This document shows positions 18,831-19,750 of a stretch of 64,000 bases of DNA, piece after piece. The notes below the pieces were generated by a model. The model was not told the DNA's origin and did no database searches. It saw nothing but the letters and a program-made list of their open reading frames with translations. A program made the position numbers and the translations under genes. Each line of letters begins with the position of its first letter. Positions within the stretch are counted from its first letter, which is position 1. The stretch lies in contig CACHQT010000001.1 in assembly GCA_902582105.1 (NCBI GenBank), positions 10,681-74,680 of the forward strand, read 5' to 3'. This stretch comes from an uncultured Pelagibacteraceae bacterium. GTDB lineage: Bacteria > Pseudomonadota > Alphaproteobacteria > Pelagibacterales > Pelagibacteraceae.

Positions 18831-18907
<77 letters not shown>

Positions 18908-18911
18908 ATAT

Positions 18912-19106
18912 CTAAATTCTGTTTTTAAGTTTATTAAGTTTTTTAACTCTCTTTATGTTCTCTTGTAAAATTCTTTTCTTTTTTTCAGATGGTTTTTCGT
19001 AAGTATTTTTTAATTTAATAATTTTAAAAAACCCATCTCTTTGAAGTTTTCTTTTTAAAACTCTAAGAGCCTGCTCAACATTATTATCTTTTACTTCTAT
19101 TTTAAT
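18912..19106 (-). CDS. rpsU: 30S ribosomal protein S21; start proposed at ATT 19106 (ORF track uses TTG 19118)
   Basis: KIEVKDNNVEQALRVLKRKLQRDG...YEKPSEKKKR; GGAGGT lies at 19116-19111, 4 nt before an in-frame ATT. Confidence 0.9.
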   Translation of the reverse strand: MKIEVKDNNVEQALRVLKRKLQRDGFFKIIKLKNTYEKPSEKKKRILQENIKRVKKLNKLKNRI

Positions 19107-19162
19107 AAATACCTCCAAAAAAATGTGTAATTAACATTTTAAATTTTTTATGTCTATTAAAT

Positions 19163-19750
19163 TTATTCATTATTGCTGATTTTTGTTGACTGTTTAGCTT
19201 TTTCCTTTTCTCTTTTTTCTCTTTTTATTCTTCTTTCAGCCTTCTCTATTGCTTCAACTAGATCTTTTTGAGTAAACAAGTTCATTGCAACTGGATCTTT
19301 TGCATTCAAATTATTGAAGTTCCAGTAACTTTTGTTTCTTATAGCTACTACAGAATTTTTAGTTATTCCAACTAACTTTGCTATTTGTGAGTCTTTTAAA
19401 ATTCCATGATGCCTTATAAGCCAGAGCGCAGAGTCTGGTTTATCTTGTCTCTTAGAAAGTGGAACATATTTTTTAATTTTTTTGTTTTCAGAAGAAATTT
19501 CAATATCAGTGTTTTGAATTTGTAGTGGTCTATCAGCATCTTGGGAAGAAAGTTGAATTTCTTCTTTAGTTAACTGACCTGCAATAATTGGGTTATAGGC
19601 GATTATGCCTTTTGCAACTTCACCATCTGCGATTCCTTGAATTTCAACTTCATGTAGTTTACAAAATTCAGCAATTTGCCTAAAGGTTAATGTAGTGTTT
19701 TCAACTAGCCAAACAGCAGTTGCCATTGGCATTAATGGTGCGTTTGACAT
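19163..19750 (-). CDS. trcR: DUF1013 family alphaproteobacterial transcription regulator (TrcR-like)
   Basis: PLMPMATAVWLVENTTLTFRQIAEFC...EIQGIADGEV, YVPLSKRQDKPD signatures. Confidence 0.85.
   Translation of the reverse strand: MSNAPLMPMATAVWLVENTTLTFRQIAEFCKLHEVEIQGIADGEVAKGIIAYNPIIAGQLTKEEIQLSSQDADRPLQIQNTDIEISSENKKIKKYVPLSKRQDKPDSALWLIRHHGILKDSQIAKLVGITKNSVVAIRNKSYWNFNNLNAKDPVAMNLFTQKDLVEAIEKAERRIKREKREKEKAKQSTKISNNE

Follow-up and report, generated by a model that had tools for sequence, protein, structure and literature searches.

In a 64,000-nt stretch of the genome of an uncultured Pelagibacteraceae bacterium (hereafter the window; assembly GCA_902582105.1, contig CACHQT010000001.1, C1:10681-74680), the rpsU gene for ribosomal protein bS21 almost certainly initiates at AUU behind a strong Shine-Dalgarno (SD) sequence, and both this start and its dependence on the retained SD are well supported by comparison with related genomes. 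SAR11 bacteria are the ocean's most abundant heterotrophs, and the genome in question (953 kb, 75% complete, GC 28.8%) has as its nearest named relatives uncultured Pelagibacteraceae single-cell genomes and Candidatus Pelagibacter strains. The computations gave directly the start codon, its SD, the conservation and covariation of the two, the scarcity of SDs elsewhere in the genome, the intact anti-SD and an avoidance of AUG that is specific to this gene. The explanation that we favour as a whole, namely an AUU start that depends on its SD, with bS21 synthesis gated by initiation fidelity and not by anti-SD sequestration of the Bacteroidia kind, is in our judgement probably right, if by no means securely so.

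The minus strand at the locus reads TTTT-GGAGGT-ATTT-ATT-AAA-ATA-GAA-GTA-AAA-GAT-AAT-AAT, in which GGAGGT occupies 19116-19111 and 5 nt separate the GGAGG core from ATT. A TAA eight codons upstream bounds the open rpsU frame, in which a TTG at 19118-19116 is the sole canonical start; the product matches the Pfam family Ribosomal_S21 (57.7 bits against a cut-off of 27, E 9e-16) as well as bS21 and bS21m chains in the PDB, and the 64-codon frame is common to all relatives. Among the rpsU loci of 179 Pelagibacteraceae genomes, which reduce to 174 distinct sequences from related and hence not independent members, the codon aligned to residue 1 of bS21 is ATT in 161, ATC in two and ATG in 11. Chance can be ruled out for the ATT, because ATT or ATC stands at this position in 163 of the 174 sequences, each time behind an SD. 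In the 11 ATG genomes the ATG occupies the exact position of the ATT elsewhere (e.g. ATG-AAA-ATA-GAA in L014-L021), and across homologues an ATG or GTG is found at the codon aligned to the ATT of the window, as in the MQVIVRDNN of L127, which bears out the register proposed in the original prediction, where IKIEVKDNN was aligned with the usual alphaproteobacterial N-terminus and ATT took the place of the initiator Met. Moreover, 61 of the first 82 ATT loci examined lack any ATG, GTG or TTG in frame between the ATT and the stop that precedes it, and the called TTG is therefore an artefact; 13 ATT loci, among them the window itself (L001) and e.g. L002, L046, L055, L063, L074, L075 and L083, contain none of the three codons anywhere in the 64 codons read from the ATT. 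The residues that a TTG start would add vary among relatives (EVF, EVV, GGF, EEV and others), neither an SD nor an A-rich tract precedes the TTG, and in some relatives (L024, L037) a one-base shift of the SD puts the TTG out of frame and yet leaves the GGAGG nucleotides in place. The 64-residue form with M at the ATT position is found in NCBI nr and UniRef for 25 contigs and is thus already implicit in some NCBI records, whereas the 68-residue TTG form stands for at least 1000 contigs, mostly by automated calls.

The SD is coupled to the weak start within the family. The 3' end of the 16S rRNA is GGATTACCTCCTTTCT in the source genome and in relatives of both start-codon types, with the canonical anti-SD intact in the tail ACCTCCTTT. 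An SD precedes the start in all ATT and ATC loci of the family and is GGAGG in all but three of them (GGGGG in two, GGAGA in one), at a spacing of 4-9 nt from the start in 81 of the 82 ATT loci; these leaders can pair contiguously with the 16S tail over 5-10 nt, most often over 7, and the duplex formed by GGAGGUA in the window has an energy of -12.0 kcal/mol (RNAduplex). The SD is absent from all 11 ATG loci, which retain only A-rich, non-core matches of 3-5 nt to the 16S tail: the leader of the ATG clade is, e.g., cttAAAAAAtattt-ATG as against tttGGAGGtattt-ATT elsewhere, with all four G residues of the SD changed to A. Because the ATG genomes are confined to the genus of the window and the outgroup genera all have ATT, the ATG without an SD is the derived state. 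In a tree of the adjacent TrcR gene, which is poorly resolved overall, seven ATG genomes form a supported clade and four have no resolved place, so that a single origin of the ATG state is compatible with this tree and is neither shown nor excluded by it. The bS21 proteins of the ATG clade include AAZ21399.1 and EAS84739.1, whose records name Candidatus Pelagibacter only and which we take, from their accession ranges, to belong to strains HTCC1062 and HTCC1002. Comparison of the trans factors between the ATT and ATG clades (16S tail, bS21 tail, tRNA-fMet and infC start) revealed no correlated change.

This coupling stands in a genome with very few SDs. Of 892 long open reading frames (ORFs) of the source genome, only 10 (about 1%) have GGAGG at -4 to -12 of their first ATG. 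When initiation regions were scored, with every open frame given its best-scoring candidate start, a procedure that favours genes other than rpsU, a helix of -12 kcal/mol or better was obtained in only 2% of the frames and rpsU ranked about 6th of 1062. At least seven other genes, listed in Table 1, pair ATG with SDs about as strong as that of rpsU, which is the only translation gene among the real-looking strong-SD genes of this genome. The other retained SDs precede accessory or conditional genes, and bhmt-type homocysteine methyltransferase genes in Pelagibacter sit behind a pseudoknot motif that binds S-adenosylmethionine (PMC2704228) and acts on translation (PMC2704228, PMC6061858); this suggests, without proving it, that SDs survive in SAR11 mainly where translation is controlled. 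An RNAduplex scan of the whole genome returned mainly intragenic Gly-Gly codons as SD-like sites, and the scoring of initiation regions was used in its place. Two apparent further cases likewise came from Gly-Gly codons within longer frames: AAAAGGAGGTA on contig C7, which precedes an ORF of 8 codons, and AGGAGGTA on contig C5, which precedes an ATT frame of 53 codons. Thus the original prediction holds for the AUU start, for the spurious TTG that overlaps the SD, for the conservation of the SD with a weak start across Pelagibacterales and for a genome that is otherwise poor in SDs while keeping its anti-SD.

Beyond the family, all 10 genomes sampled from the second family of Pelagibacterales carry AAGGAGG-N7-ATA-GTY-GAA, and the part of the leader displayed contains no canonical start in frame. 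In a sample of 80 genomes from other alphaproteobacterial families (L116-L195), where we assigned starts from alignment register, the open frame and the distance from the SD, a few of these assignments being ambiguous (e.g. L129, L132, L147), rpsU starts with GTG in 31, with an AUH codon in 19 (ATC 11, ATA 4, ATT 4), with ATG in 16, with TTG in 13 and with CTG in one. The control gene rpmE (bL31) from the same class sample (L283-L312) starts with ATG in 29 of 30 loci. For loci outside the Pelagibacteraceae, ATG in 16 of 80 rpsU genes against 27 of 28 rpmE genes gives a Fisher p of 3e-13, a value in which independence is overstated as the genomes are related. Two of the underlying tallies include the unpublished genome G216, from which no locus was used and on which no conclusion depends. 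Furthermore, rpsU of the gamma/beta type (MPxxKV...) starts with ATG in 14 of 15 cases among the phylum-level loci (L313-L342), and a further group of bS21 genes with the alpha-type DNNV motif uses GTG. Avoidance of AUG is a property of alpha-type rpsU throughout the class, as judged from the aligned genes, with the AUH starts as its extreme form. Weak rpsU starts are thus common to the class and no invention of SAR11, a point that the original prediction had missed. A strict tie between ATT and the SD can be discerned only in genomes that can otherwise dispense with SDs; L116 and L117, from another AT-rich lineage in which rpsU has ATG, likewise have almost no SD. As a separate observation, many GC-rich genomes of the class open rpsU with ATC-GTT-CAG.

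In the mechanism that we propose, the initiator tRNA would translate rpsU from the AUU at 19106-19104, to which a short unstructured leader of about 15 nt would guide it, the GGAGGUA pairing with the free canonical anti-SD and setting the near-cognate codon in the P site. The near-cognate start with its SD would be ancestral for Pelagibacterales, as ATT in the Pelagibacteraceae and as ATA in the second family, and would represent the local form of the class-wide avoidance of AUG by alpha-type rpsU. The SD of rpsU would survive amid the near-total loss of SDs in SAR11 because the weak start needs it, as the change of four G residues to A in the ATG subclade indicates. In E. coli, AUU, AUC and AUA starts are discriminated by IF3, and ppGpp and nutrient limitation preferentially depress non-AUG starts (PMC5499595), while 30S subunits with assembly defects evade the scrutiny of non-canonical starts by IF3 (PMC6868393). 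From this established behaviour of AUU, AUC and AUA starts, bS21 synthesis would be throttled by start-codon proofreading: it would go up if IF3 is in short supply compared with 30S subunits, or if the latter are immature and less discriminating, and down under ppGpp or nutrient limitation, so that the supply of a late-binding, exchangeable 30S protein would be coupled to the state of the initiation machinery. That the arrangement gates bS21 synthesis by initiation fidelity is the likeliest functional reading by analogy, but we advance it only tentatively. Several points weigh against the explanation as a whole. Any regulatory role of the AUU with its SD is drawn from analogy, and the N-terminus is predicted from sequence comparison. 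The ATG clade lives without the pair while every trans factor examined stays the same. GTG and TTG, which are canonical to IF3, make up more than half of the rpsU starts in the class, so that discrimination by IF3 cannot explain the whole class pattern. Finally, compensation of a weaker start by a stronger SD was looked for class-wide and not seen, since AUH and ATG genes show no difference in SD strength (p 0.71), and it is therefore no general rule.

The best-surviving alternative is that the weak rpsU start was inherited from an alphaproteobacterial ancestor for reasons unrelated to control and that the SD merely restores adequate output and start selection, ATT with the SD being functionally equal to ATG without it. 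The clean swap to ATG without an SD in one subclade, with the 16S tail, bS21, tRNA-fMet and the infC start unchanged, speaks for this, and since the mutation from ATT to ATG replaces T by G, counter to the AT mutational bias of this 29% GC genome, the persistence of ATT could be partly mutational. However, ATT is nearly invariant over at least 16 genera in which bS21 identity falls to 63% (two ATC and no ATA among 163), whereas the Ile codon two positions after it is more variable (changed in 13 of 163); the avoidance of AUG is specific to rpsU (16 of 80, compared with 29 of 30 for rpmE); it is also found in GC-rich lineages, in which mutational bias should lead to ATG or GTG rather than ATC; and very low-GC genomes otherwise use ATG almost exclusively as the start (PMC5499595). 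We consider an origin by compensation only to be rather unlikely, although it deserves serious attention. The gating of bS21 synthesis by initiation fidelity could also be extended: alpha-type bS21 synthesis would then be governed everywhere by fidelity, immature or bS21-free 30S subunits or a shortage of IF3 raising initiation at weak starts in a homeostatic loop, with SAR11 keeping its only translation-gene SD solely for this loop and the bS21 copies of pelagiphages tapping into or bypassing it. In this full form we find the proposal doubtful.

Three known systems come closest to the present one. The AUU or AUC start of infC is the target of IF3 autoregulation (PMC5499595), and in E. coli and its relatives infC resembles the present case as a translation-machinery gene with a conserved near-cognate AUU and a functional SD. 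The SAR11 product is bS21 and not IF3, so that any loop would be indirect, and the autoregulatory loop that characterises infC is not reproduced. In SAR11 itself, infC starts at GTG directly after the upstream TAA (TAAGTG), with no SD, in 6 of 6 genomes (the source genome, G000 C6:35142-35687 on the minus strand, equal to L096:1495-2040, and five relatives from both clades, L276-L280); this suggests, from the arrangement of the genes, translational coupling without AUU autoregulation, and the absence of the textbook IF3 autoregulatory loop weighs further against gating by fidelity. The infC analogy of the original prediction is thus right about a conserved AUU with an SD but is weaker than had been assumed. 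The infC of one relative (G101, L280) is interrupted by several stops, which indicates a frameshift or an assembly error.

In Bacteroidota, rpsU is autoregulated through an extended SD that is used by bS21-free ribosomes (PMC9976891, PMC7797042, PMC13000457). A circuit of this type in SAR11, in which bS21 would help to sequester the anti-SD, or an extended helix would exclude bS21, and only bS21-free ribosomes would translate rpsU, is attractive in that the gene is the same, the lineage mostly lacks SDs but keeps a conserved anti-SD, and the SD of rpsU is above average, the same logic having been described in F. johnsoniae (PMC9976891, PMC13000457). Nevertheless, we judge it very improbable. 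The C-terminal tail of SAR11 bS21 is strongly basic (net +9, range +8 to +10; pI about 11, range 10.8-11.6) and has no Tyr in 12 of 13 genomes, the remaining one having a C-terminal Tyr, whereas the Bacteroidia tail is less basic with a signature Tyr54 (PMC7797042), so that both that residue and the low-pI signature are missing. The Bacteroidia system is further characterised by pocket residues in bS18 (Phe50, Asn56, Lys37) and in the C-terminal helix of bS6 (Trp100, Arg103). The SAR11 helix is mostly 7 nt, or 7-8 nt (range 5-10), at -12.0 kcal/mol, compared with a 13-bp SD-anti-SD helix and a threshold below -13 kcal/mol for F. johnsoniae rpsU (PMC13000457), a comparison that is approximate as the energies were computed differently. 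Moreover, rpsU is not the sole SD gene in SAR11, and the at least seven other ATG genes with similar SDs mean that its ribosomes are probably not SD-blind. The start here is AUU, whereas the Bacteroidia papers put the weight on the SD and, as far as consulted, mention no near-cognate start, and the SAR11 SD is lost whenever the start becomes ATG. Because the long, strong helix and the bS21 tail of the Bacteroidia system are lacking and the ATG clade dropped its SD with bS21 and 16S unchanged, we do not assign the locus to that system, and the proposed Flavobacteria-like loop is not supported. Compared with SD compensation of weak starts and with the regulatory roles of bacterial non-AUG starts in general, such as GUG in tufA and hupB and UUG in cyaA (PMC5499595), the SAR11 case shares a conserved, gene-specific non-AUG start in a well-expressed gene, but it differs in that the codon belongs to the non-canonical AUH class, in a genome whose GC content of 29% would lead one to expect ATG almost throughout, and in that a natural paired reversion (ATG with erasure of the SD) is found among close relatives. 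Least credible of all is that the annotated TTG (19118) truly starts a 68-residue protein in which GGAGGT merely encodes Glu-Val: it is the only canonical start in the frame of the window and the commonest automated call, but it is missing or out of frame in most ATT loci, has no SD or A-rich tract ahead of it, adds four unconserved residues and overlaps a GGAGG that is kept even in a differing frame, while the ATG relatives begin exactly at the ATT.

As a consequence, most automated annotations give SAR11 bS21 a wrong N-terminus. The two clades also offer a natural experiment in initiation design, in which AUU with a strong SD and AUG without one occur within one genus on otherwise identical translation machinery, and cultured strains appear to exist in both. 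The AUU with its SD, together with the class-wide avoidance of AUG, would point to a second control of bS21 supply, independent of the anti-SD sequestration of Bacteroidia, and bears on why SD-poor lineages retain the anti-SD and on the role of pelagiphage-encoded bS21. A literature search of incomplete coverage, which is no proof of novelty, turned up no account of rpsU starts other than AUG in SAR11 or Alphaproteobacteria and no paper on the switch from ATT with an SD to ATG without one or on the class-wide pattern.

Table 1. Features of the rpsU locus (positions in the window) and other strong-SD genes of the source genome (G000)
Feature	Position	Strand	Remarks
rpsU (bS21) coding sequence from ATT	18912..19106	-	64 codons, then TAG stop 18914-18912; Pfam PF01165
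ATT, inferred initiation codon (AUU)	19104..19106	-	aligns with residue 1 of all homologues
Extended SD GGAGGTA	19110..19116	-	7 nt complementary to 16S 3' tail
TTG of automated gene callers (68-residue form), judged spurious	19116..19118	-	overlaps SD
Probable promoter	19128..19156	-	TAGACA 19156-19151, 17-nt spacer with TG 19136-19135, TAATTA 19133-19128
Initiator tRNA-Met gene	18831..18907	-	4 nt past rpsU stop; ARAGORN and Rfam
HSP20	G000 C28:3763-4209		strong SD; L343-L349 set
Homocysteine S-methyltransferase	G000 C8:36176-37222		strong SD; L343-L349 set
GYD protein	G000 C3:49230-49553		strong SD; L343-L349 set
Luciferase-like monooxygenase	G000 C5:17166-18335		strong SD; L343-L349 set
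Rieske oxygenase	G000 C8:40372-41547		strong SD; L343-L349 set
CMD-family protein	G000 C3:41248-41640		strong SD; L343-L349 set
SnoaL-like protein	G000 C3:34090-34410		strong SD; L343-L349 set

The gene upstream of rpsU (19163-19750) encodes a TrcR-family regulator, and the predicted promoter between them probably resembles the alphaproteobacterial housekeeping type and implies a 5' untranslated region of about 15 nt, with a predicted transcription start near 19121. A TGnTA element lies 18-31 nt ahead of the start in all 89 family loci scored, with a TAGACA-like box further upstream in the family loci displayed; a strict sigma-70 scan did not call the TAGACA-N17-TGnTA promoter. A structured leader or a mimic of a ribosomal-protein-binding site was considered and rejected: such a structure is unlikely because the leader with the early coding region folds no better than shuffled sequences (minimum free energy z +0.97) and an Rfam search of the leader matched no leader family. 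Within the gene, ATA (Ile) is kept at codon 3 (19098-19100 on the minus strand) by 150 of the 163 ATT-type sequences, and 164 of the 174 family sequences have AAA at codon 2; to judge by this pattern, the constraint on the initiation region may extend to the first codons.

Downstream, the initiator tRNA gene is probably co-transcribed with rpsU. The tRNA has the C1xA72 mismatch and the anticodon CAT, its 5' CGCGGGG pairing with CCCCGCA-ACCA at the 3' end, and its anticodon stem (A29:U41, G30:C40, G31:C39) has two of the three canonical G:C pairs, identically in the ATT and ATG clades; the A29:U41 pair could bear on scrutiny in the P site and by IF3. The close adjacency pointed out in the original prediction is real but is no part of the switch, as the linkage occurs with both start codons and is missing from several ATT genera.

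Among Pelagibacter phages, the bS21 gene of HTVC008M (L281:130-150) has ATG behind a weak AAAGGG, and that of Mosig (L282:130-150) has TTG behind GAAAGGAGGTAAT, which is perfectly complementary to the host 16S tail over 13 nt and falls within the end of the upstream ORF; the Mosig gene thus shows the same pairing of a strong SD with a weak start as rpsU of the host. In addition, a 749-nt contig (L265, JABABI010000320.1) filed in a Fuerstiella (Planctomycetota) metagenome-assembled genome carries an rpsU 98% identical to that of SAR11, which is probably due to binning contamination.
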